NCBI GenBank assembly: GCA_947311445.1
Contig: CAMZKV010000037.1
Location: 5,494 to 69,493 of the forward strand
Length of the DNA: 64,000 bases
Reading direction: 5' to 3'
DNA from: an uncultured Chlorobiota bacterium
GTDB lineage: Bacteria > Bacteroidota > Bacteroidia > Bacteroidales > JAADGE01
The notes beneath the pieces were generated by a model. That model was not told the DNA's origin and did no database searches. It worked only from the letters and a program-made list of their open reading frames with translations. Positions 4,884 through 35,622 of this stretch are shown piece by piece; position 1 is the first letter of the stretch; each line of letters begins with the position of its first letter. A program made the position numbers and the translations under genes.

Positions 4884-5747
4884 ATGAAAACAATCTTAGT
4901 TACAGGAGCTAATGGACAACTTGGAAATGAAATTAAAAAAGCATCTAATAAATTTAGTTTTTTTAATTTTTTATTTACGGATGTAAATACTCTTAATATT
5001 GCTGATGAAAAAGAACTTGAAGACTTCTTTTCATTAAATAAAATTAATTTCATTATAAATTGTGCTGCATATACAAATGTTGATAAAGCAGAAACGGAAA
5101 AAGATAAAGCAGAAAAAATTAATATTTTTGCAGTAGAAAACCTTGCTAAACTCTCAAAAAGACATAAAGCTCATTTAATTCATATTTCAACTGATTATGT
5201 TTTTGATGGAAATAGAAAAACTCCATACATAGAAACTGACAAAACAAACCCCCAGTCTATATATGGAAAAACTAAATTAGGAGGTGAAAATTCAGCAAAA
5301 AAAGCATATAAATATATTATTATTAGAACTTCATGGCTATATTCATCATTTGGAGATAACTTTGTTAAAACAATGTTGCGTTTAGGAGTCGATAAAGAGG
5401 AAATAAATGTAGTTTCAGACCAAATTGGTTCACCAACTTATGCAAAAGATTTAGCATTGATAATTTTAAAAATAATTTCAAAAACAAACAAAGATACTAA
5501 TAACTTCATTGAAGGCATTTTTCATTTTTCAAATGAAGGCATATGTTCTTGGCAAGAATTTGCAGCAGAAATTATGCAACAAAAAAAGTTTAAATGTAAA
5601 GTTAATCCTATTTCTACATCAGAATACCCAACTCCTGCTAAACGTCCAAAATACAGTTTATTAAACAAAACAAAAATAAAAAAAACTTTTAATATTGAAA
5701 TAAGAAATTGGAAAAGTGCTTTATCAGAATGTCTATCCCTTTTTTAA
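4884..5747 (+). CDS. rfbD: dTDP-4-dehydrorhamnose reductase
   Basis: GANGQLG, NCAAYTNVDKAE, HISTDYVFDG, YGKTK, DQIGSPT, RP.YS motifs. Confidence 0.95.
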   Translation: MKTILVTGANGQLGNEIKKASNKFSFFNFLFTDVNTLNIADEKELEDFFSLNKINFIINCAAYTNVDKAETEKDKAEKINIFAVENLAKLSKRHKAHLIHISTDYVFDGNRKTPYIETDKTNPQSIYGKTKLGGENSAKKAYKYIIIRTSWLYSSFGDNFVKTMLRLGVDKEEINVVSDQIGSPTYAKDLALIILKIISKTNKDTNNFIEGIFHFSNEGICSWQEFAAEIMQQKKFKCKVNPISTSEYPTPAKRPKYSLLNKTKIKKTFNIEIRNWKSALSECLSLF

Positions 5748-5886
5748 AATTAAAAAAAATATAAAAATTCTGTTTTATACTATAGAACAAGTCAAAAAAT
5801 GTTTTATAATAGGTAAATATATAACGATACTAACATCTTTTTTATTTACTTTGTAGAATTATAAAAAATAAACTAAACTTATTAAA

Positions 5887-7509
5887 ATGGCAAAATTAGA
5901 TTTAAGCAAATACGGAATTAATGATGTACAAACAATATATCATAATATTTCATATGAAGAATTATTCAAACATGAAACAGACAGCAAGTTAGAAGGCTTT
6001 GAGAAAGGTTATTTAACTAATCTTGATGCAGTTACAGTTGATACAGGTATTTTTACAGGACGTTCTCCGAAAGATAAATATATTGTAGAAGAAGATGAAA
6101 ACAAAGCTAATATTTGGTGGCGAAATGACCATAGACCTGCATCTGACAATAAACCTATTTCACAAGAAATTTGGGAAGACCTAAAAGCAAATAGTATAAA
6201 ACAATTATCAGGAAAAAAATTATATGTCCAAGATGGCTATGCCGGGGCAAATGAAAATACAAGACTTAAAGTAAGATTTATTGTTGAAGTTGCATGGCAA
6301 GCACATTTTGTAAAAAATATGTTTATCAGACCAAGCGATGCCGAGCTTGAAAACTTTGAACCGGATTTTGTAGTATTTAACTCTTCAAAAACTTCAAACC
6401 CAAAATGGAAAGAACACGGATTAAATAGTGAAGTTTATGCAGCATTTAATTTAAAAGAAAAAATGGCTGTTATTGGAGGTAGTTGGTATGGTGGAGAAAT
6501 GAAAAAAGGCATTTTCTCTGTAATGAATTATTATTTACCACTTAAAGGAATTGCAGCAATGCACTGCTCTGCAAATGTAGGTAAAGATGGAGATACTGCT
6601 ATTTTCTTTGGTCTTTCAGGAACAGGAAAAACTACTTTATCAGCAGATCCGAACAGAGCCTTAATTGGTGATGATGAACACGGATGGGACGATGAAGGCG
6701 TTTTCAATTTTGAAGGTGGATGTTATGCAAAAACTATTGACTTAGACCCTGAAAAAGAACCTGATATTTACAATGCAATTAGAAGAGATGCTCTTCTTGA
6801 AAACGTTGGTTTTGATGAAAATGGGGTAATTGATTTTGCAGATACATCAAAAACAAAAAACACAAGAGTTTCATATCCAATATATCATATTGAAAATATT
6901 GTAAAACCTGTTTCAAAAGCAGGACATGCAAAAAAAGTTATTTTCCTTACTGCTGATGCTTTTGGAGTTTTACCCCCAGTATCAAAATTAACACCAGACC
7001 AAATAAGATACCATTTTATTAGTGGCTACACTGCAAAAGTTGCAGGAACAGAAAGAGGAATTACAGAACCTGTACCTTCATTCTCAGCTTGTTTTGGAGC
7101 AGCATTCTTATTATTAGACCCAATTAAATATGCTGATGAGTTAATAAGAAAAATGGAAATGAACGGAGCAACCGGATATCTTGTAAATACAGGTTGGATT
7201 GGTGGTGCTTATGGTACTGGTAAACGTATTGATCTTCCTTCAACAAGAAATATTATAAATGCTATTCTTGATGGTTCTATTGATGAAGGTGAATTTGAAA
7301 ATATTCCGGTATTCAATCTTGCAGTACCAAAATCTGTAAAAAATGTTGACAGTAATTTATTAAACCCAAGAAACCTTTGGAATGACCCAAAAGACTGGGA
7401 TGCTGCCTCATTAGATTTAGCACAAAGATTTATTGATAACTTTGAATTCTTTACCGATAATGATGCAGCTAAGAAATTAGTAGATACAGCAGGACCGAAG
7501 ATAGTTTAA
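5887..7509 (+). CDS. pckA: Phosphoenolpyruvate carboxykinase (ATP)
   Basis: [54 protein letters not shown]. Confidence 0.98.
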
Positions 7510-7566
7510 TTTTTTACAACATTAATTAAAACCTTTATAGGTTTATAAATTTCTTTTTATTTATTA

Positions 7567-7600
7567 ATCACAGCAAATACAATTTGCTGTGATTTTTTTT
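7567..7600 (+). terminator. Intrinsic terminator of pckA
   Basis: aatcacagcaaat / atttgctgtgatt stem followed by a T-run. Confidence 0.8.
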
Positions 7601-7712
7601 TAATTTTGCGCTAAATAAATTATAATTTGTTTATTAGAAGTTTTTAGAAAGATACAAAAACATAAAGTTAAGGAGCAATTATATATTTTCAAACAATTAT
7701 TTCAGAATTAAA

Positions 7713-8051
7713 ATGATATTAAAAAATTTATTAAACATTGAAGATTTTAAATCAGTATTAGAAGATGAAGACGGAGTTTTAGTTTATTTTTCCCACGAAC
7801 AATGTAATGTTTGTAAAGTCTTAAAACCAAAAATCCATGAAATGCTTGGCTCAGACTTTCCTAAAATAAAAATGGTTTATGCAGATACTGTTAAAGTTCC
7901 TGAGATTGCAGGTCAGAATAGTGTTTTTACAGTTCCTACAATTATTTGCTTTTTTGCAGGGAAAGAAACTATTAGGAAAAGTAGAAATATAGGTATCGAA
8001 GAATTAAAAAATATGATTTCAAGACCATATGAAATGGTTTTTGAGATTTAA
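7713..8051 (+). CDS. Thioredoxin family protein
   Basis: CNVC active site, FTVPT cis-Pro motif; TAATTTTG -7 element at 7601-7608. Confidence 0.85.
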   Translation: MILKNLLNIEDFKSVLEDEDGVLVYFSHEQCNVCKVLKPKIHEMLGSDFPKIKMVYADTVKVPEIAGQNSVFTVPTIICFFAGKETIRKSRNIGIEELKNMISRPYEMVFEI

Positions 8052-8075
8052 AATATTTGGTTAATAAAAAAGCAT

Positions 8076-9218
8076 ATGGAAAAACTCAATTTTGATAATA
8101 TCCGTTCATATAGAGATGATGAAGTTAATGATAAATTAAGAAAACTTGTAAAAGATAAAGAGTTTATTTATATTCTGAGAAAAATTTTTACAGATGAAAG
8201 AATTGCAAATTTAAGTGAAGAGCTTAATGAAGTAAATTCGGTTTACGATTTTCAATCAAAATATATTTCATATTATGTAAAAAGTCTATTAGACTTGTCA
8301 ATTTCTGAACTTTCAATTTCGGGAATTGAGAAACTAAAAAAAAATAAATCATACCTTTTCATTTCTAATCATAGAGATATTATAATTGATTCGGCTCTAA
8401 TTAATGAAATTTTATTGTCAAATGGGTTCTCAACTTCCGAAAATGCAATAGGAAATAATCTTCTGATATACAAATGGATAGAAACTCTTGTCAGACTAAA
8501 CAAATCTTTTATAGTTAGACGAGATTTGGTTGGAAGAGAAATGCTACAAGCTTCAATTAAATTATCAGCATATATAAGAGATGCAATAACAAACAGAAAT
8601 ACATCAGTTTGGATAGCACAAAGAGAAGGAAGAACAAAAGATGGCAATGATGTAACAGAAGAAGCTTTACTAAAAATGTTAAACCTTAGTGGAACAAATA
8701 ATTTTGAGAAAGATTTCTCAGAACTTAATATTATCCCAATCAGTATTTCATACGAAACAGAACCTACCATAGAATCTAAAATTGCATCAACATACTCAAA
8801 TATAAAAGGTCTTAATAATGAAAAAACAGTTGATGACGATTTAACTGACATGGGAAGAGGTTTGTATAGTGCAAAAGGAAAAGTAACTGTTGTTTTTGGA
8901 GATGAAATTAATAATAATATTAAAAAACTTGACAAAATAGCAAACAGGAATGAAAAGATTAAACTTCTTTCAAAAATTATAGACAATAGTATTTATTCTA
9001 ATTTCAAATTAACAAAAAACAATTATATTGCTTTTGATATTCTTACAAACTCAAAAAAATGTTTAAAAGAAAATAAATATCAAAAAGCAGATGAAACTAA
9101 ACTTAGATTCCAATGTCAAAAAACAATTAGTACAATTGAAGGAGAAAAAGAATTATTAGAAAACATATTTTATAGGATTTATGCAAATCCTTTAATAAAT
9201 AAAATCCAAATCCCTTAA
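8076..9218 (+). CDS. PlsC-like glycerol/lysophospholipid acyltransferase
   Basis: NHRDIIID (HX4D), SFIVRR, WIAQREGRTKDG motifs. Confidence 0.85.
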   Translation: MEKLNFDNIRSYRDDEVNDKLRKLVKDKEFIYILRKIFTDERIANLSEELNEVNSVYDFQSKYISYYVKSLLDLSISELSISGIEKLKKNKSYLFISNHRDIIIDSALINEILLSNGFSTSENAIGNNLLIYKWIETLVRLNKSFIVRRDLVGREMLQASIKLSAYIRDAITNRNTSVWIAQREGRTKDGNDVTEEALLKMLNLSGTNNFEKDFSELNIIPISISYETEPTIESKIASTYSNIKGLNNEKTVDDDLTDMGRGLYSAKGKVTVVFGDEINNNIKKLDKIANRNEKIKLLSKIIDNSIYSNFKLTKNNYIAFDILTNSKKCLKENKYQKADETKLRFQCQKTISTIEGEKELLENIFYRIYANPLINKIQIP

Positions 9219-12577: not shown

Positions 12578-12629
12578 AAATGTAAAATATATTTTTATCT
12601 AATTAAAAAATATTTTTTAAATTTTATAT

Positions 12630-14768
12630 ATGCGCAAGTTGTTATTTATCTTTCTGACTTTTAACATAGCAATTAATGGATATTCCCAAAGCAATCTACT
12701 AGATTCTTTATTAAAAGAATACAACTATGAAAAAAATGATTCTTCTAAAATTAGCAAACTAATTAATATTGGAACAATCTTTTTGAATACTAATCCGGAT
12801 TCTTCAGAATATTACTTTTCAAAAGCCGGAGAATTATGCAACTTAATGATTAAATCAGATAATCCTAAAACAAAAGAAGATGGGCTATTTTTATACTCAA
12901 AATCATTATTTAAAAAAGCATTATACAAATCTTTAATTAGCGATTATCTTAAAGCAGAAGAATTATTTTTAACAGTAATTAATAAATTAACAGAACTTAT
13001 TAATTCATCTAAAAACGAAACAATAATATCAAATTCTAAAATAATAGAAGCCAATTGTTTTGAAGGAATTGCTGATATTTATTATGAAAAAGGATATTAT
13101 ACAATTGCTTTAAAAAACTATATTGAAGCAACTAAAATTAAAGAAATTCTAATTAAAAATGGCATAGTGAAAGAAAGTGAATCGGCAGGACAATACTTTC
13201 ATCTTGGCATGGTTCATTTTGAATTGAAAAATTATAAACGTGCACTAAAAAACTACACAAAATGCCTTGAAATTTCAAAAAAATTTAATAATGAAACTGG
13301 TATAGCAAAGTCAAATAACAATATTGGACTAATATATTTGGAGTTAAACAAACCTAAGGTCGCAATTTCATATATAAACCAATCATTAAAGTATGCAAAA
13401 CATACAAATAATTTAATCTTAAAAGCTCAAGCATATGATGGACTAGCAGAGTGTTATATTTCTTTAAAAAACTTCAAACAAGCTGAACTAAATTTAGTTA
13501 AAGCAATAATAATTGCAAGAAAAGTTGGAAACAAACAAGGAGAAATATATATATTACTAGGATTAGCAAATTTATATCAAAAAACAAATAAATATTCAAA
13601 ATCAATTTTGTATTGTAAAAAAGCAATTGAAATTTCAAAAAATATTGGCTCTATTATTTTAGAAAAAAATGCTTATGAGCAAATGTTTGAAACTTATGAT
13701 TCTCAAAAGGACTATAAAAATGCTCTTTTTTATCATAAAAAATTCAAAGCATTACAAGATTCTATTTTCAGCAAAGAAAAAAATAAACAACTTGAAGAAG
13801 TTGAAGCAAAATTTATGGCAAATAAAAAACAAAAAGAAATTGACAGAAAAAACATTGAATTATTTAAAAAAGATGAACATTTAAAACGAAAAAAATTAGA
13901 AAATATCACATTTATTTTTCTAACATCAATTCTTTTAATTCTTATAACTATTATATTCATAAGTTTAAGAAACAGAAAGAAAAAAGGAATTCTTATAAGC
14001 GAACAAAATAAAAAAATAACGGACAGCATAAAGTATGCTAAAACAATCCAAAATGCTACGCTACCAACTTTTAAGTATTTAAAACAAATTTCAAAAGACT
14101 TCTTTATCTTTTACAAACCACTTCAAATTGTGAGTGGAGACTTTTATTGGGCTTTAAAAAAAGAAGACCTTACTGTTTTTGTTGTTGCTGATTGTACCGG
14201 ACATGGAGTGCCAGGTGCTTTTGTAAGTATGTTTGGAATATCGCTCTTAAATGAATTAATCTTGAAATCCGATTTAAAAACGCCCCATCTTATTTTAGAA
14301 GAAATGAGGTTTATTTTAAAAAAATCATTTAAACAAACTGGAAAATTTAAAGATCAAACAGATGGGATTGATATAGCCTTAGCAGTTATCAATAATATAA
14401 CTAATGAACTATATTTTGCCAGTGCAAATCAAACGGCATACCTAATGCGAAAAAGTGCAATAACTGAACTCATCGCAGTTAAAAATCCTGTTGGAATTTA
14501 CCCAAAAGAAGTTTTATTTAAAATGCAAACAATTAATTTAGAAAAAGACGACATAATATATCTGTTTACCGATGGTTATTCTGACCAATTTGGAGGAAAC
14601 TCTTTAAAACCAAAGAAATTTACAGAACAAAGATTTAAAAATTTACTGTCTGAAATTTATACTAAGCCAATGAAAGAACAAAAAGAAATATTAGAATTGA
14701 AATTTAATGAGTGGAAAAAAGGAAAGAAACAAATTGATGATGTTCTAATTTTTGGAATAAAATATTAA
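12630..14768 (+). CDS. TPR-repeat sensor / TM / SpoIIE (PP2C) protein phosphatase
   Basis: Signal peptide, multiple TPR-like helical repeats, one TM helix, then VSGDFYW, ADCTGHGVPGA, DGIDI, FTDGYSDQFGG, DDVLI. Confidence 0.9.
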   Translation: MRKLLFIFLTFNIAINGYSQSNLLDSLLKEYNYEKNDSSKISKLINIGTIFLNTNPDSSEYYFSKAGELCNLMIKSDNPKTKEDGLFLYSKSLFKKALYKSLISDYLKAEELFLTVINKLTELINSSKNETIISNSKIIEANCFEGIADIYYEKGYYTIALKNYIEATKIKEILIKNGIVKESESAGQYFHLGMVHFELKNYKRALKNYTKCLEISKKFNNETGIAKSNNNIGLIYLELNKPKVAISYINQSLKYAKHTNNLILKAQAYDGLAECYISLKNFKQAELNLVKAIIIARKVGNKQGEIYILLGLANLYQKTNKYSKSILYCKKAIEISKNIGSIILEKNAYEQMFETYDSQKDYKNALFYHKKFKALQDSIFSKEKNKQLEEVEAKFMANKKQKEIDRKNIELFKKDEHLKRKKLENITFIFLTSILLILITIIFISLRNRKKKGILISEQNKKITDSIKYAKTIQNATLPTFKYLKQISKDFFIFYKPLQIVSGDFYWALKKEDLTVFVVADCTGHGVPGAFVSMFGISLLNELILKSDLKTPHLILEEMRFILKKSFKQTGKFKDQTDGIDIALAVINNITNELYFASANQTAYLMRKSAITELIAVKNPVGIYPKEVLFKMQTINLEKDDIIYLFTDGYSDQFGGNSLKPKKFTEQRFKNLLSEIYTKPMKEQKEILELKFNEWKKGKKQIDDVLIFGIKY

Positions 14769-29187: not shown

Positions 29188-32100
29188 TTAAAACTTAGCA
29201 CCAATAACAATGATATCATCAATTTGTTCATAATTACTCATCCAGCGTTCAATTGTATCGTCAAGATGTTGTCTTTGTTCTTTCATTGACATATCTTGAA
29301 TGTTGAGCAAAGTTTTTTTAAACCTTCCAATCATGAATTTTTTATCTCTGGGACCTCCAAATTGATCAGGGTATCCGTCAGAGAATGTGTAGAGTGTATC
29401 TCCTTTTTGTAATTTAACTGTTTGGTTTTTAAATCTTTGATTTATGTCATCATAATTATATATACCAATAGGCATCCTGTCTGCTTCAACAATAATTATT
29501 TCACCATTTCTAACAATATATAATGGATTAAATGCACCTGCAAATTCAACAATCTTTTTCTCTTTGTTAATTTTGCATAGGGCAATGTCCATACCGTCTT
29601 TTGCTTCTTGTGCTTCTCCGGTTTGGTGCAATGCTTCAATAACTTTTGCTTTTAGTAAGTCTAATACGTCAGATGCTTTTAGTTCGTTTTGTGAAGTTCT
29701 AATTATATCGTTAAGGAAAGAAATTCCTAGCATACTCATAAATGCACCTGGAACACCATGTCCTGTGCAATCTGCTGCTGCATAATATGTTATATTATTT
29801 TTTTCGGCTGCCCAATAAAAGTCTCCACTTACAATATCTCTTGGTTTAAACAGAATAAAACTATCTGGCATAAGTCTGTCTAGCAATTTATCTGGTGGCA
29901 ATATTGCATGTTGAATTCTTTTAGCGTAAAGAATACTGTCTTCAATTTCTTTTTTTTGATTTGTAATTTCATCTCTTTGTTGTTCTGCTATATCTCTTTG
30001 AGACTTAATTTCTTCTTTTTGAGCTTCAAGTTCTGTGTTTTTTTCAGTTATTTCTATTGTTCTTTCTGCAACAGTTTTTTCTAGTTTTTCATTTTGTTTT
30101 TTTAGAATTCTCATTCTCCATTTTTGAATTAGCCAAAAAACAAAAATAATCAGCAGAATTACCGGCAAAACAAACCACCATTCTTTGTAAAAAGGTTTTT
30201 TTATTTCAAAATCTACGCTTTGATAATAGCTCCATATTCCATCTTTTCCTTTTGTTCTGTATTTAAAACTGTATTTTCCCGGCGGTAGAATAGGGTAGGT
30301 TGCGATGTTTTTATTTACTTTTGATGCAACATAGGTGTTTAATCCTTGCAGATAATAATCATATTCAACAGAGTTTTCGTCTTTAAATGACAATCCTGAG
30401 ATTTCAAAAATTATGTTGTTTTGAGTTGAGTTCAAAACTTTTGGCATATTTAGAAATCTTTTACCATTTATGAGTATAGATTCTATTCGACAAACCGGTG
30501 TGTATTTTTCAGTTTTTTTCTTTTTTATATCAAAAGTTGCAATTCCGTGATATGTTCCTATCCAAAGGGTGTTTCTTTTATCAAGATAAAGCCCGTCAAC
30601 TGATATTTCATTTCCAAGAAGTCCGTCTCTTGAATCTATTATAAATTCAATTTTATTGTTTGTTTTGTTGTAGTAATATACTCCTCTGTCTGTTCCAATC
30701 CATAGCATATTAGGATTTTCTGCACTTTCAATTGCTGTTACAAGACGATTGCTAAATTCTTCTTTGTTTACAAATTCTACTTTTTCATTTTGATATTTGG
30801 CAAGACCATTTTGTGTTCCTATCCATAAGAATTTTTCAAAACTGGCTGTTTTTTTATTTTGGACAGAATCAATGTGAAGAGCCCAAGTATGGTAGTTTAT
30901 TTCTTTGAATTTTTGGAAAGTTTCGTTCTTAAATATCACTAATCCAGTATTATTTGCTCCAATAATGTTGTTGTCAAATTCAATTATTTGGGAAATTAAT
31001 GAAGTTTCGGAATTTTCAATTTTTAAAATGTCAGATTTAAAATCTTTTAGATAATAAATTATTCCAGAATTTCCTGATAATAGAAACATTTCATTTTTAG
31101 AAGAAATAAAAATGTCATTTAGATGGAATAAGTCTGTTTTAAAAATTTTAGATTTTTTTTGGCGAAGTGTATTTTTATCAATAAGATAAATTCCTTTTGT
31201 ATCTGCAATAACAATATCATTTTCTTTGTTTTCTGAGATTACAAATGAATTGTTTTTTAATTTTAGTTTATCTGTAAAGTTTAAGAGACTACCTTTTATA
31301 TAGTGAATGCCAGTGCTCATTCCTACCCAAACTCTTCCTGAATTATCTTTAAAAACTGAATTTATAGTACTGTTTATATCTTTTGGGTATAGTGTTCTTA
31401 AACTTTTATTAGTTAATTTCTGAACTCCTCCTGAAAAACCAAACCATGTGTTTTCTTCATTGTCAACTATAAAAGAGTTTATCTTATGATTTAGAAGTCC
31501 TATGTTTTTATCGTAAATTATTGGTTTTTGTTTTAATGTTAATATTTGATAAATTTTGTAGTCGGATATGAGCCAAACAGAGCCATTTTTTGTTTGTTTT
31601 ATTTTATTAATTTGTGTGTGAATATTAAGTGTTTCATTTAAAGGAATTGCTCTATTGATACTATCTATCTTATTATCAGTATAATAAACTCCTGACTTTG
31701 AAGAAATCCAAAGTCTTTCATCTGTATCATATAGAGCAGATAGACAAAATTCATTGGTTATTTTTCGTACAGTTTTATTTTCTAAAATAAATAGACCTTC
31801 TCCGGATGCAATAATTATTTGATTAGTTTTTTTATTTATAGATATAGAGTTAATTTTTTTGGGTAAATTATTGATTTGCATATTCATACAAATTTCTTTT
31901 CCTTCCTCAGAGATAGTATATAATCCGTCATCTCCAAAAAATAGTACTCTATTTTTGTCAATACAAATTCCTTTAAAAGAGATATTTTTAAAATATGTTT
32001 TAATTTTTTCATTTTTTTTATTTAAAACTGATATTCCGTTTAGCCCTGCGAAGTATATTTTTCCGTCAATACCTTGATTAATACTAAAAACAGAATTTCC

Positions 32101-33894
32101 TGCTAATCCGTTTTTTGAATTATATATTTTCATTTTTCTGCCATTATATTTTGCGACACCTGAATATGTGCCAAACCAAATATAGCCTTCTGTGTCTTGA
32201 AAAATAGAAAGGACATCTTCTTGTGGTAATCCTTTATCTTTACCATAAAATACGAAAGGAAAATACCCTTCTTGGTATGTTTCGTGAAGGACTGTGAGGT
32301 AATTTTTGGCAGATTGCATACTCATACCTGCCTGATGTTTAAAATATTCATCAAAAATTCCATTTTTTCGAGCATATTCAAAGAATTCAAGTATCTTTTG
32401 TCGTAAAAGTGGCTGATTTTTTTTAATTGCCCAGCCCATTTTTTTTATTTCTCCAATAATAAATTTTGCTTCTAACTTTGGGTAATCTGCTAGTTTAAAA
32501 ACGGATATGTTTGAAATTGTATAGTCTGCTTTGCCGGAAATAACATCGCTAAAAAAATTATTACCGGTATTATGATAATAATTTGTGATATTATTTTGGT
32601 TTAAAGCATATTCATAAGATGAGCCTTTGGATGTTACTCCTCTTAAATTTTTTAAATCGTTAATTGAACTTATTTTTGTGTCTTTTCTTCCAATTACAAC
32701 TTTTGCATTAGGAAGAAAATCTAGAACATCTACTTTTTTTAGTCGCCATTCCAATGGGTCAATTAGATCGCATGCAACATCAAATTCATTAAACCATTTT
32801 GGGTTGTATGCACTGTCTTTTAGAATTTGTCCTTTTTCATTTTCCCAATATCGAGAAAATTTTTCTGTAAAAACAAATTCGGGTTTAAGTCCAAGATATT
32901 TTGCAAAACTTTCGGCAAGAAGATGATTAAATTGTTTTTTTCCGGTAGGATGATATACTAAATCTCTGTCTCTTAGAGCAATAATGATTTTTCCTGATTT
33001 CATTATTTCTTCAATATCTCTTGTTTTATCTCCTTTTTGAAGGCTTGAGAATGAATTTATAATTTCAAGGTAAGTAGAATAATCAATATCATATTTTTCT
33101 CTAAATAGTTCATCTAATTTTCCGTTTCCTCTGATAGTTTCAAAAAAGTTTTGAATTTCTTCTTTTATCTTATTATTTCCTTTTTTTACTGCCCATCCAA
33201 CATTTTGGGGTTTATTAACAGGGAATGTAAGTTTAAAATTATTATTATTTTTAAGATAAGATAATGCAAGAAAAGAAACTGTAATTAGACCATCAGCTTT
33301 GCCTTCTTCAAGAAGTTTTAGGGATTCGTCTTCTGATTTTGTTTTTATGTATTCAATTCCTCCTCCAATTTTTTTATTAATAAGAGAAATGTTTGTTTCG
33401 TATGTTGAATTTTCTAAAAATGCAATTTTTAAACCTTTAAGGTCTTTTTTGCTTTTAATTTTTTTAGAAACATTTTTTTTAGTTATTAAGATGTCACTTA
33501 TTTGAATAATTCCTGAATAGTCAAAAAATTTTTTTCGCCACTCAAGTTCGTAAATTGTTCCACAAATTATGTCTGCTTTTTGCAGAGCATCCGGTGTGTA
33601 GCTAATTTTTGGGTTTGTTTTATAATCATTTGGAATTTTTCCATCTTTTGAGAATACATCATCCCATTTTATTGTTGTTTCTTCAAATTTAACATCTAAA
33701 AATTTTGCAAATTCTTGTGCTGCTGTGTAGTTTACAGTGTTTTTCCAACTTTCTGTAAAAGCGATTGTTATTTTTCCTTCTTTTTTTATTTTCTTTACTG
33801 TTTGAGAATATATAAAGAATGGTATGATGAAAAATAGTATGAATAGTAATTGTTTTTTCATTTTATTAAATGATTCAGTATTTTTTGTAGTCAT
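29188..33894 (-). CDS. Sensor PP2C/SpoIIE phosphatase: two family-3 substrate-binding domains, beta-propeller, Y_Y_Y, TM, coiled coil, SpoIIE
   Basis: Two SBP-like repeats (G.I.IA, DL.GL, G.AD, GWA.KK); repeated D..G..W.G propeller blades; PPGKYSFKYR Y_Y_Y; PRDIVSGDFYW, ADCTGHGVPGA, DGMD, FSDGYPDQFGG, DD catalytic motifs; start may be the later MKKQLL. Confidence 0.88.
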   Translation of the reverse strand: MTTKNTESFNKMKKQLLFILFFIIPFFIYSQTVKKIKKEGKITIAFTESWKNTVNYTAAQEFAKFLDVKFEETTIKWDDVFSKDGKIPNDYKTNPKISYTPDALQKADIICGTIYELEWRKKFFDYSGIIQISDILITKKNVSKKIKSKKDLKGLKIAFLENSTYETNISLINKKIGGGIEYIKTKSEDESLKLLEEGKADGLITVSFLALSYLKNNNNFKLTFPVNKPQNVGWAVKKGNNKIKEEIQNFFETIRGNGKLDELFREKYDIDYSTYLEIINSFSSLQKGDKTRDIEEIMKSGKIIIALRDRDLVYHPTGKKQFNHLLAESFAKYLGLKPEFVFTEKFSRYWENEKGQILKDSAYNPKWFNEFDVACDLIDPLEWRLKKVDVLDFLPNAKVVIGRKDTKISSINDLKNLRGVTSKGSSYEYALNQNNITNYYHNTGNNFFSDVISGKADYTISNISVFKLADYPKLEAKFIIGEIKKMGWAIKKNQPLLRQKILEFFEYARKNGIFDEYFKHQAGMSMQSAKNYLTVLHETYQEGYFPFVFYGKDKGLPQEDVLSIFQDTEGYIWFGTYSGVAKYNGRKMKIYNSKNGLAGNSVFSINQGIDGKIYFAGLNGISVLNKKNEKIKTYFKNISFKGICIDKNRVLFFGDDGLYTISEEGKEICMNMQINNLPKKINSISINKKTNQIIIASGEGLFILENKTVRKITNEFCLSALYDTDERLWISSKSGVYYTDNKIDSINRAIPLNETLNIHTQINKIKQTKNGSVWLISDYKIYQILTLKQKPIIYDKNIGLLNHKINSFIVDNEENTWFGFSGGVQKLTNKSLRTLYPKDINSTINSVFKDNSGRVWVGMSTGIHYIKGSLLNFTDKLKLKNNSFVISENKENDIVIADTKGIYLIDKNTLRQKKSKIFKTDLFHLNDIFISSKNEMFLLSGNSGIIYYLKDFKSDILKIENSETSLISQIIEFDNNIIGANNTGLVIFKNETFQKFKEINYHTWALHIDSVQNKKTASFEKFLWIGTQNGLAKYQNEKVEFVNKEEFSNRLVTAIESAENPNMLWIGTDRGVYYYNKTNNKIEFIIDSRDGLLGNEISVDGLYLDKRNTLWIGTYHGIATFDIKKKKTEKYTPVCRIESILINGKRFLNMPKVLNSTQNNIIFEISGLSFKDENSVEYDYYLQGLNTYVASKVNKNIATYPILPPGKYSFKYRTKGKDGIWSYYQSVDFEIKKPFYKEWWFVLPVILLIIFVFWLIQKWRMRILKKQNEKLEKTVAERTIEITEKNTELEAQKEEIKSQRDIAEQQRDEITNQKKEIEDSILYAKRIQHAILPPDKLLDRLMPDSFILFKPRDIVSGDFYWAAEKNNITYYAAADCTGHGVPGAFMSMLGISFLNDIIRTSQNELKASDVLDLLKAKVIEALHQTGEAQEAKDGMDIALCKINKEKKIVEFAGAFNPLYIVRNGEIIIVEADRMPIGIYNYDDINQRFKNQTVKLQKGDTLYTFSDGYPDQFGGPRDKKFMIGRFKKTLLNIQDMSMKEQRQHLDDTIERWMSNYEQIDDIIVIGAKF

Positions 33895-33905
33895 AAAATA
33901 ACATA

Positions 33906-33932
33906 AAAAAGTATCATTTAATGATACTTTTT
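33906..33932 (-). terminator. Terminator-like hairpin between xseB and the phosphatase gene
   Basis: aaaaagtatcat-tta-atgatacttttt perfect stem with a U-run on the minus strand. Confidence 0.6.
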
Positions 33933-34131
33933 AGGAGTTATTTTCTTCAAATATTTTTTCAATTTGTTTTTCTGTATTCAATAGTTTTAATTTGCATTTT
34001 TCCAAAAGTTCAGAAACTCTTTTTACTTTCCCGGATAATTGGTCAATTTCTACATTATTATTTTCAATATCTTCTAGAATAGTTTCTATTTCTAAAATTG
34101 CATCATTATATGAAATTTCTTTCTTTGCCAT
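33931..34131 (-). CDS. xseB: Exodeoxyribonuclease VII small subunit
   Basis: MAKKEISYNDAILEIETIL..IE....IDQLS.KVKR..ELL..CK.KL..TE..IEKI matches the XseB pattern. Confidence 0.88.
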   Translation of the reverse strand: MAKKEISYNDAILEIETILEDIENNNVEIDQLSGKVKRVSELLEKCKLKLLNTEKQIEKIFEENNS

Positions 34132-34135
34132 TTTA

Positions 34136-34525
34136 TTAGTCTTCAAAAGGAATCATTTCAATTTCTAATCCTGTGTCTAACATATAATCTTCAATGTCTT
34201 CTTCCATATCAATATCATCTTCGTCATAGTACCAATTTATTAATACTTCTCCTCCGTCTTCTTCATAATCTTTAATTATATTAAGTAAATCTAGGATGCT
34301 TCTAGAAGTACTTGTGTTAAAGTATGTTAGTTTTATTTCAAATGTTAAAGGATTTTTCACTTCTGTTGTAAATTCTTCAAGCCATTGAATAAGTGGATCG
34401 TAAAATTCAATTGTATCTTCGAGAAAAGATTCGCCTTCTAATAAGCAATATCCTGTTTCTGAATTAAAATCAACAGTTGGTATAAAAAAATTAGTGTGTG
34501 AACCTTCTATATGTATATTTTCCAT
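34136..34525 (-). CDS. SiaC family (DUF1987) regulatory phosphoprotein
   Basis: TP.VDF...G...GES..E....FY.P...WL, L.YFNTSTSR, INWYYDEDD.DM.E motifs. Confidence 0.88.
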   Translation of the reverse strand: MENIHIEGSHTNFFIPTVDFNSETGYCLLEGESFLEDTIEFYDPLIQWLEEFTTEVKNPLTFEIKLTYFNTSTSRSILDLLNIIKDYEEDGGEVLINWYYDEDDIDMEEDIEDYMLDTGLEIEMIPFED

Positions 34526-34538
34526 TATTTTATTTTTT

Positions 34539-35081
34539 TTATTTATCAACTTTTACTGAGATAGAAAAATAGGATGTTTTTTCATCAATTGGGTTTATTT
34601 CCAGGTCTAGAGGATTGCCGGATGTGAGAGCCACAGTTATTAAACCAATATTTGGACTATGGTTTTCGTCTTTGTTTTCTCGTCTGACGCTTCTTTTGTA
34701 TTCTCTCAATTCTGAATGGTCAAGTTCGTTAATGTTTTTGCTATTTTCCAAAACAGGAATTAGATGTTCATTTTTTATGGGATTTCCTGTAACTAAAATA
34801 AAATTTTTAACAGTTTCTTTAAGGATTATTGTTCCTGCTCCAACTTCTTTACCGTTTTTAAGTTTTATTTTCTCCGAAGAATATTTTGAAATATTTTCAG
34901 CAAGTTCAAAAAATATCTTAAATAATTTTTTTGTTGCTTTTTCTGAAAGAGTGTTTACAACTCCTATATAATCACCAAGATATGTAATTATCTTTCCGTC
35001 AACAGGACCTTTGTATGATATCCTAATTTCTTCTGAAAATAGGCTTTGTCCTAAACTTAGTTTTTTGTTAATTGTTGCCAT
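34539..35081 (-). CDS. SiaB family (DUF6272) protein kinase, paralog 2
   Basis: SYKGP, F.IFFELAENI.KYS, TGNPI, L...Y, NIGLI.VAL.SGNPL; its ATG directly follows the stop of paralog 1. Confidence 0.82.
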   Translation of the reverse strand: MATINKKLSLGQSLFSEEIRISYKGPVDGKIITYLGDYIGVVNTLSEKATKKLFKIFFELAENISKYSSEKIKLKNGKEVGAGTIILKETVKNFILVTGNPIKNEHLIPVLENSKNINELDHSELREYKRSVRRENKDENHSPNIGLITVALTSGNPLDLEINPIDEKTSYFSISVKVDK

Positions 35082-35082
35082 C

Positions 35083-35622
35083 TTATGCTTCTTTATTAAT
35101 TTTAACTGCAATAATATAGAATGATTTTTCTTTTTCAATTTCAATAAAAGAAACATTCAAAGGATTTCTAGAAAGCAGTGCTGCCTGAACCAGTCCAATG
35201 TTTCCCGTTCCTCTTTCTCCTTGCGGAAGTTTTCTGAGCTCTCTTTTGAATGTTCTTAACCCGTCTCTGTCATACGAATTTATTTTGTCGCATTTATCTT
35301 TTAGGATTATTTCATGTTTTTTGTCTATTGGGTTTCCTAAAATAAAATTATAATGATCATCATTATTTTGAATAATGAAAGTTCCAACACCGGAACTTTC
35401 TCCTTTTTTAGTTTGTTCTTGTTCGTTGGAATAGTATGAAACATTTTGTGCAAGTTCAATAAATACTTTAAATATTGTTTTGTTTAATTTCTTATCTGCA
35501 GATATAGAATGTTCAATGTTTTTTCCAAACATTGATAATACCTGACCATCAAACGGACCGGTGTATGACATAACAATATTTTTTCCGGTTAATCGTGTAA
35601 AAACACTTTTAGTAGCACTCAT
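35083..35622 (-). CDS. SiaB family (DUF6272) protein kinase, paralog 1
   Basis: SYTGPF, FKVFIELAQNV.YYS, GN.I, IN......LR, GNIGLV.AALLSRNPL. Confidence 0.82.
   Translation of the reverse strand: MSATKSVFTRLTGKNIVMSYTGPFDGQVLSMFGKNIEHSISADKKLNKTIFKVFIELAQNVSYYSNEQEQTKKGESSGVGTFIIQNNDDHYNFILGNPIDKKHEIILKDKCDKINSYDRDGLRTFKRELRKLPQGERGTGNIGLVQAALLSRNPLNVSFIEIEKEKSFYIIAVKINKEA

Follow-up and report, generated by a model that had tools for sequence, protein, structure and literature searches.

A predicted receptor phosphatase of Bacteroidales with tandem SBP domains, a double beta-propeller and a SiaA-like PP2C output

Here we describe a sensor phosphatase encoded on the reverse strand of a 64,000-nt window, the whole stretch of DNA analysed (C37:5494-69493 of genome G000, which is 2.75 Mb in size, 93.75% complete and derived from an epibiont / hydrothermal-vent metagenome). 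The protein is likely to be a type I membrane receptor phosphatase that takes its input through a tandem of substrate-binding protein (SBP) domains and a beta-propeller, and whose SiaA-type PP2C output acts on a SiaC-family protein. An earlier note on this DNA had proposed the order signal peptide, two SBP domains, Reg_prop/Y_Y_Y ectodomain, transmembrane (TM) helix, linker and PP2C domain, and every part of it proved correct by Pfam, AlphaFold2, Foldseek and hydropathy. The open reading frame (ORF), which is intact, and the parts of its product are located as follows (window positions; VFT, Venus flytrap; HTCS, hybrid two-component system):

29188..33894, (-): whole sensor phosphatase ORF, 1568 aa, stop codon at 29188-29190; the 11 N-terminal codons are probably untranslated
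33805..33861, (-): probable start Met12 and signal peptide MKKQLLFILFFIIPFFIYS, aa 12-30, from the hydropathy scan and homologue lengths, with a predicted cleavage site
33040..33804, (-): SBP/VFT domain 1, aa 31-285, above the Pfam cut-off for SBP_bac_3
32260..33039, (-): SBP/VFT domain 2, a paralogue of domain 1, aa 286-545, with a C-terminal helical linker and the FPFVFYG junction
30505..32256, (-): HTCS-type double beta-propeller of Reg_prop repeats, aa 547-1130
30199..30495, (-): membrane-proximal Y_Y_Y / Ig-like beta-sandwich, aa 1134-1232
30109..30180, (-): single helix crossing the membrane, aa 1239-1262, from hydropathy
29890..30108, (-): charged helical linker, a probable coiled coil, aa 1263-1335
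29191..29889, (-): PP2C (SpoIIE-family) phosphatase domain, aa 1336-1568, with all metal-binding motifs

Translation probably begins at Met12 (33861), giving a protein of 1557 aa, because close homologues are 1557 aa long and MKKQLLFILFFIIPFFIYS is a typical signal peptide. The hydropathy scan finds just two hydrophobic segments, aa 15-34 (signal peptide) and aa 1234-1262 (TM helix), and therefore about 1200 aa are periplasmic and about 300 aa cytoplasmic. Pfam assigns SBP_bac_3, Reg_prop, Y_Y_Y and SpoIIE to the protein; public records label it only as 'transporter substrate-binding domain-containing protein'.

The closest match of the PP2C domain is SiaA of Pseudomonas aeruginosa (6k4e, E = 8e-31 over 280 aa). 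The domain is intact, as had been claimed: all metal-binding motifs (GDFY, DCTGHG, GMD, SDGYPDQFGG and DDI) are present, align to 6k4e and are conserved without change in at least 95% of 118 homologues, which strongly implies, at the level of sequence, that the domain is catalytically competent. The linker (aa 1263-1335) aligns with the helices N-terminal to the PP2C core in SiaA. SpoIIE is the sole Pfam match C-terminal to the TM helix, and no HisKA, HATPase_c, receiver or AraC-type helix-turn-helix domain was found there.

The likeness to SiaA extends to the gene neighbourhood. Upstream of the phosphatase gene and on the same strand are genes for two SiaB-family kinases, a SiaC-family phosphoprotein and XseB, which the earlier note had not mentioned:

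35083..35622, (-): SiaB-family kinase 1 (DUF6272)
34539..35156, (-): SiaB-family kinase 2 (DUF6272), probable start MATINKK at 35081
34136..34549, (-): SiaC-family phosphoprotein, probable start MENIHIEG at 34525, acceptor Thr in YFNTS
33931..34131, (-): xseB, exonuclease VII small subunit, 66 aa, conserved beside the phosphatase gene
33905..33933, (-): AT-rich hairpin with a T-run, overlapping the xseB stop and 11 nt upstream of the annotated ATG

Both kinases exceed the cut-off of NF038262 (119.5 and 131.9 bits, cut-off 85). The SiaC-family protein matches PF09345 (DUF1987) with E = 2e-37 and scores 83 bits against the SiaC equivalog, below the cut-off of 150. In P. aeruginosa SiaC, the phospho-acceptor T68 is held in the peptide LLYLNTSSIK (PMC7647112), and the Thr of YFNTS aligns with it.

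Genome-wide profile searches place these genes within a larger inventory, with 24 SpoIIE/PP2C genes, 13 SiaC-family genes, 11 SiaB-type domains, two class III cyclases and a single STAS protein. GGDEF has no match in the 93.75%-complete genome, which consequently shows no SiaD-type output. The genome thus holds a large partner-switch network without cyclic di-GMP (c-di-GMP) output, and with these numbers of PP2C, SiaC, SiaB, STAS and GGDEF domains, SiaC-type proteins are the main available substrates.

Part of this inventory resembles the sensor phosphatase. Four paralogous phosphatases of 1064-1157 aa have the Reg_prop, Y_Y_Y, TM and PP2C backbone and no SBP tandem, and a fifth probable paralogue of 1188 aa has a weak Reg_prop match. 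The sensor phosphatase is this common propeller-PP2C backbone with some 520 residues added at the N-terminus.

Both N-terminal repeats model as SBP folds, with boundaries that match those proposed earlier (about aa 30-280 and 290-525) to a few residues. Domain 1 scores 31.8-34.8 bits against SBP_bac_3 (PF00497) and passes the Pfam gathering cut-off of 26.4 bits; domain 2 alone, at 21.6 bits, stays under it and is homologous to domain 1 (27% identity over 266 columns, E = 9e-20). The region aa 31-556 was modelled with AlphaFold2 from 15 family sequences (mean pLDDT 87.3, pTM 0.62); the model has two bilobed alpha/beta domains with a short linker of low confidence between them and helices after them. 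In Foldseek searches of the PDB with this model, tandem substrate-binding domains (SBDs) rank at the top, namely GlnPQ SBD1-SBD2 (6h30, E = 1e-23), the BvgS periplasmic domain (4q0c, E = 1.4e-19), EvgS (9ilw, 5e-17) and CdgH (5gzs). Single amino-acid-binding SBPs come after them with TM-scores of 0.65-0.79. SBP_bac_3 is confined to the sensor phosphatase in a profile search of the genome, which marks its SBP domains as dedicated to sensing rather than to transport.

The remainder of the ectodomain is of HTCS type. Foldseek matches the C-terminal ~700 aa of the ectodomain model to the complete BT4663 periplasmic domain (4a2m/4a2l) with E = 4.5e-39 and TM-scores of 0.71-0.75 over ~745 residues, and the all-beta part also matches BT3049. 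BT4663 is an HTCS that senses heparin. A putative glycan input through the propeller is suggested only by the fold likeness of the model to BT4663, and the annotation of the neighbouring genes revealed no SusC/SusD or other polysaccharide utilization locus (PUL) genes near the sensor phosphatase gene.

How the two sensor classes are joined can be read from the model and from conservation. The AlphaFold2 model of the whole ectodomain (aa 31-1228, made from 25 sequences) has a pLDDT of 85.0 and a pTM of 0.72, higher than the 0.62 of the SBP tandem alone. The junction between SBP domain 2 and the propeller (GxFPFVFYG...GLPQED..S..QD) is almost invariant across the family, which argues for a rigid coupling of the two sensor classes. 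Since the SBP tandem is membrane-distal, any signal from it must go via the propeller module. The multi-input receptor with a Ser/Thr phosphatase output that the earlier note had envisaged is the natural reading of the domains, with small-molecule and glycan-type sensing as its putative inputs.

Pocket residues were read from a profile alignment to the arginine/glutamine binder AncQR together with the alignment of the two SBP domains. In this alignment the carboxylate-binding Arg is kept in both domains (R120 and R384) within an EWR motif and is invariant across the family. The residue at the position of the alpha-ammonium-binding Asp is predicted to be V206 in domain 1 and S461/N462 in domain 2. 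A Ser/Thr-rich loop is kept in both domains, as NSTYE in domain 1 and KGSSYE in domain 2. Because the Arg is kept and the Asp is missing in both domains, a canonical polar amino-acid ligand is unlikely for either; the ligands are probably anionic small molecules other than standard alpha-amino acids. A role in redox or sulfur sensing was considered for the free cysteines C111 and C375, which occupy the same position in each SBP domain, in view of rhodanese genes in the neighbourhood. It was rejected: C111 is not invariant in a wider alignment, and the rhodanese neighbourhood is not conserved at related loci.

The architecture is widespread. A search with the N-terminal 545 aa returned at least 189 sequence clusters; among the best 120 of these 189, all full-length ones combine SBP_bac_3, Reg_prop and SpoIIE, with Y_Y_Y in all but two and lengths of 1503-1651 aa. 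At 50% identity, an exhaustive search of representatives groups the family proper into about 14 clusters. Relatives are encoded in at least 106 species-representative genomes. Every one is a metagenome-assembled genome (MAG) that carries the label Bacteroidales or Bacteroidota or, in some cases and wrongly, Chlorobi, and vents, sulfidic caves, rumen and horse gut are among their sources. Sampled evenly, the order has the family in 33 of 401 genomes (20 of 236 genera), MAGs in every case and never with more than one copy per genome. The earlier note had asked whether the architecture was both widespread and already characterised; the former holds, and our literature search found no publication describing or characterising the SBP-propeller-Y_Y_Y-SpoIIE combination. 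Literature searches for Reg_prop/Y_Y_Y with SpoIIE, or for SiaC/DUF1987/DUF6272 in Bacteroidota, returned nothing relevant, and the 'SiaC' of PMC11885536 is an unrelated sialidase.

More distant cousins carry the same modules in other combinations. The metagenomic protein P0122 (2072 aa) has four SBP domains, a propeller/Y_Y_Y region and, in place of PP2C, a class III adenylate/guanylate cyclase as its output, and its ectodomain is 36% identical to that of the sensor phosphatase over 1259 aa. The ectodomain, found here on a cyclase, thus acts like a portable input module. Further cousins include proteins with four SBP domains and SpoIIE that lack the propeller, SBP-PAS-histidine kinases, and tandem SBPs that occur on their own.

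Within the family, the association with Sia genes follows the clades, and two of the arrangements place xseB next to the phosphatase gene:

Clade at 65% identity or above: SiaB-SiaB-SiaC-xseB-phosphatase
Clade at 55-59% identity: SiaB-SiaC-SiaB-SiaC-TPR-PP2C-phosphatase-xseB, with a SiaB-SiaB-SiaC fusion encoded on the opposite strand
Clades at 40-52% identity: no Sia genes within 9 kb

Two side observations concern these neighbourhoods. Loci of the 55-59% clade encode a TPR-SpoIIE phosphatase of ~775 aa directly upstream of the SBP-propeller phosphatase, after two SiaB-SiaC pairs, so that each Sia cluster has two different sensor phosphatases (loci L009, L011, L041, L050, L052, L053 and L090, about 5400-8800). 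In part of the 40-43% clade, a conserved START/Aha1-like gene of ~125 aa takes the place of the Sia genes immediately upstream of the sensor gene (loci L079, L082, L085-L087, L089 and L091, about 8400-8860).

In the window itself, xseB starts 4 nt past the siaC stop, and the hairpin at 33905-33933 looks, from its sequence, like an intrinsic terminator; it is kept in relatives of at least 80% identity, with a variable loop. A sigma-70 promoter scan found 45 sites compared to 46.1 expected from shuffles, with a model that does not represent Bacteroidota promoters. XseA was not found in the 93.75%-complete assembly; it is present and unlinked in 8/8 relatives, the same genus included, and an assembly gap is for this reason the likelier cause of its absence. 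The idea that the Sia module recruited an orphan xseB was accordingly rejected.

By analogy with known systems, the protein would work as follows. Two classes of predicted ligand-binding module are arranged in series, with a membrane-distal VFT pair, a rigid junction, the double propeller and Y_Y_Y. As in BT4663, BvgS and SiaA-PP2C, the receptor may act as a dimer. Ligand in the SBP clefts, in the propeller or in both would alter the geometry of the propeller/Y_Y_Y dimer, and this change might shift the TM helices and the linker and so set the activity of the PP2C domain. The phosphatase would strip the phosphate that the SiaB-family kinases put on a SiaC-family protein at its conserved Thr, the most likely candidate being the one encoded two genes upstream. 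In its unphosphorylated form this protein would bind an output partner; with no diguanylate cyclase encoded in the genome, the partner must be of another kind. An extended version of this scheme describes a coincidence or logic detector in which flytraps docked on the propeller dimer gate or bias a scissor-type closure. Activity would then need a small anionic metabolite together with a second ligand, a glycan or other, and would feed the c-di-GMP-independent SiaB/SiaC network, with the input module reused on a class III cyclase. We regard this version as speculative and improbable as a whole.

Several points weigh against a SiaA-type phosphatase acting on the adjacent SiaC-family protein. The match to the SiaA equivalog NF038263 reaches 175.5 bits compared to a cut-off of 700 and covers model positions 376-656 only. 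Dimerisation and signal transmission are borrowed from BT4663, BvgS and SiaA and would hold by analogy. About half of the family, the 40-52% clades, has no Sia genes within 9 kb, and the terminator-like hairpin between xseB and the phosphatase gene makes co-transcription with the Sia genes doubtful. The last two points also favour an explanation in which the adjacency is inherited synteny and the phosphatase acts in trans, on another member of the PP2C/SiaC network or on the STAS protein. So do the ratio of 24 PP2C genes to 13 SiaC genes and one STAS gene, which implies many-to-few wiring, and the fact that xseB, without an obvious functional link, is equally syntenic. Nevertheless, Sia genes are kept beside the phosphatase gene in two different gene orders over ~55-98% identity, the PP2C domain is SiaA-like and the adjacent SiaC-family protein has the acceptor Thr, and we judge action in trans to be somewhat unlikely.

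Other alternatives concern the input. The SBP tandem could be a structural or dimerisation scaffold without a ligand of its own, much as the VFTs of BvgS are largely in a default state, with the propeller alone sensing. This fits the absence of the alpha-amino-binding Asp from both SBP domains, the position of the SBPs far from the membrane, which precludes a direct action on the TM helix, and the case of BvgS, whose default kinase-on state is set by the periplasmic conformation itself (PMC4352136). Nonetheless, the Arg of EWR and the Ser/Thr-rich loop occupy ligand-binding positions and are (nearly) invariant in the family. The SBP domains are also more conserved than the propeller, with median identities across the family of 0.57 and 0.45 (the linker helix is highest at 0.63), and relatives with four SBP domains (P0122, P0264) fit sensing arrays better; we thus consider a pure scaffold unlikely. 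Alternatively, the SBPs may be MltF-type modules that bind peptidoglycan-derived peptides, in which case the protein would report cell-wall turnover or envelope damage rather than nutrients. The best NCBIfam match of the SBP region is indeed the MltF model (E = 1.4e-22, in two stretches), and MltF structures are among the sequence and fold matches. Yet PDB profile searches favour amino-acid SBPs (1.4e-19 compared to about 1e-8 for MltF), the protein has no lytic transglycosylase domain and the MltF match is confined to the generic SBP part, so that a peptidoglycan sensor appears improbable. The reading we prefer remains that of a receptor phosphatase with SBP and propeller inputs and a SiaC-family substrate.

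Comparison with characterised systems indicates that the sensor phosphatase is a recombination of known parts and not a new kind of system; both tandem SBP sensor modules and propeller-PP2C proteins are already established. Like SiaA of the P. aeruginosa SiaABCD system (6K4E, NF038263; PMC7647112, PMC8457831), it is a membrane-anchored PP2C with a helical linker, encoded beside genes for a SiaB-family kinase and a SiaC-family phosphoprotein with a conserved acceptor Thr. Unlike SiaA, it has an entirely different ectodomain of ~1200 aa, two neighbouring SiaB genes, no SiaD/GGDEF in the genome, and xseB and a terminator-like hairpin between its gene and siaC. With Bacteroides HTCS sensors such as BT4663 (4A2L/4A2M), BT3049 (3V9F) and BT4673 (3OTT/3VA6) it shares the double propeller and Y_Y_Y before a single TM helix, but PP2C replaces the HisKA-HATPase-receiver-AraC output, a 520-aa SBP tandem is added and no PUL is nearby. 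BvgS (4Q0C, PMC4352136), EvgS (9ILW), CdgH (5GZS, PMC5431781) and GlnPQ SBD1-SBD2 (6H30) have the same periplasmic tandem of family-3 SBP folds. In BvgS, EvgS and CdgH, however, VFT2 runs straight into the TM helix, whereas ~690 aa of propeller and Y_Y_Y intervene here, and the BvgS family has a histidine-kinase output in place of PP2C. The alpha-amino-binding Asp that the SBP domains lack is present in CdgH PBPb-I and other amino-acid binders. Finally, Reg_prop/Y_Y_Y-SpoIIE sensor phosphatases of Bacteroidota have the same propeller, Y_Y_Y, TM helix, linker and PP2C domain without the SBP tandem.

The same genome contains further genes of the partner-switch type. A second SpoIIE/PP2C gene in the window, at 12621-14765 (+) (C37:18114-20258), encodes 712 aa. 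SiaB-SiaB-SiaC fusions in one ORF (~508-516 aa), a chain of kinase, kinase and substrate, are encoded at G000:C88:8113-9477 (+) and, among related loci, at L009 16436-17962 (-), L011, L041, L050, L052 and L090. At G000:C23:22878-25513 (-), four SiaC-family genes in tandem follow a 387-aa ORF with two SiaB-type domains.

Bacteroidales have many sensor phosphatases, and this family offers a tractable entry point to the c-di-GMP-independent SiaB/SiaC network: it is single-copy, ranges from vent epibionts to the rumen and horse gut, has genes for its probable kinases and substrate adjacent in two clades, and provides two soluble SBP domains. Identification of the ligand and of the SiaC partner would reveal what the SiaB/SiaC switch controls in organisms without c-di-GMP signalling, and how two stacked sensor classes are integrated across one TM helix.

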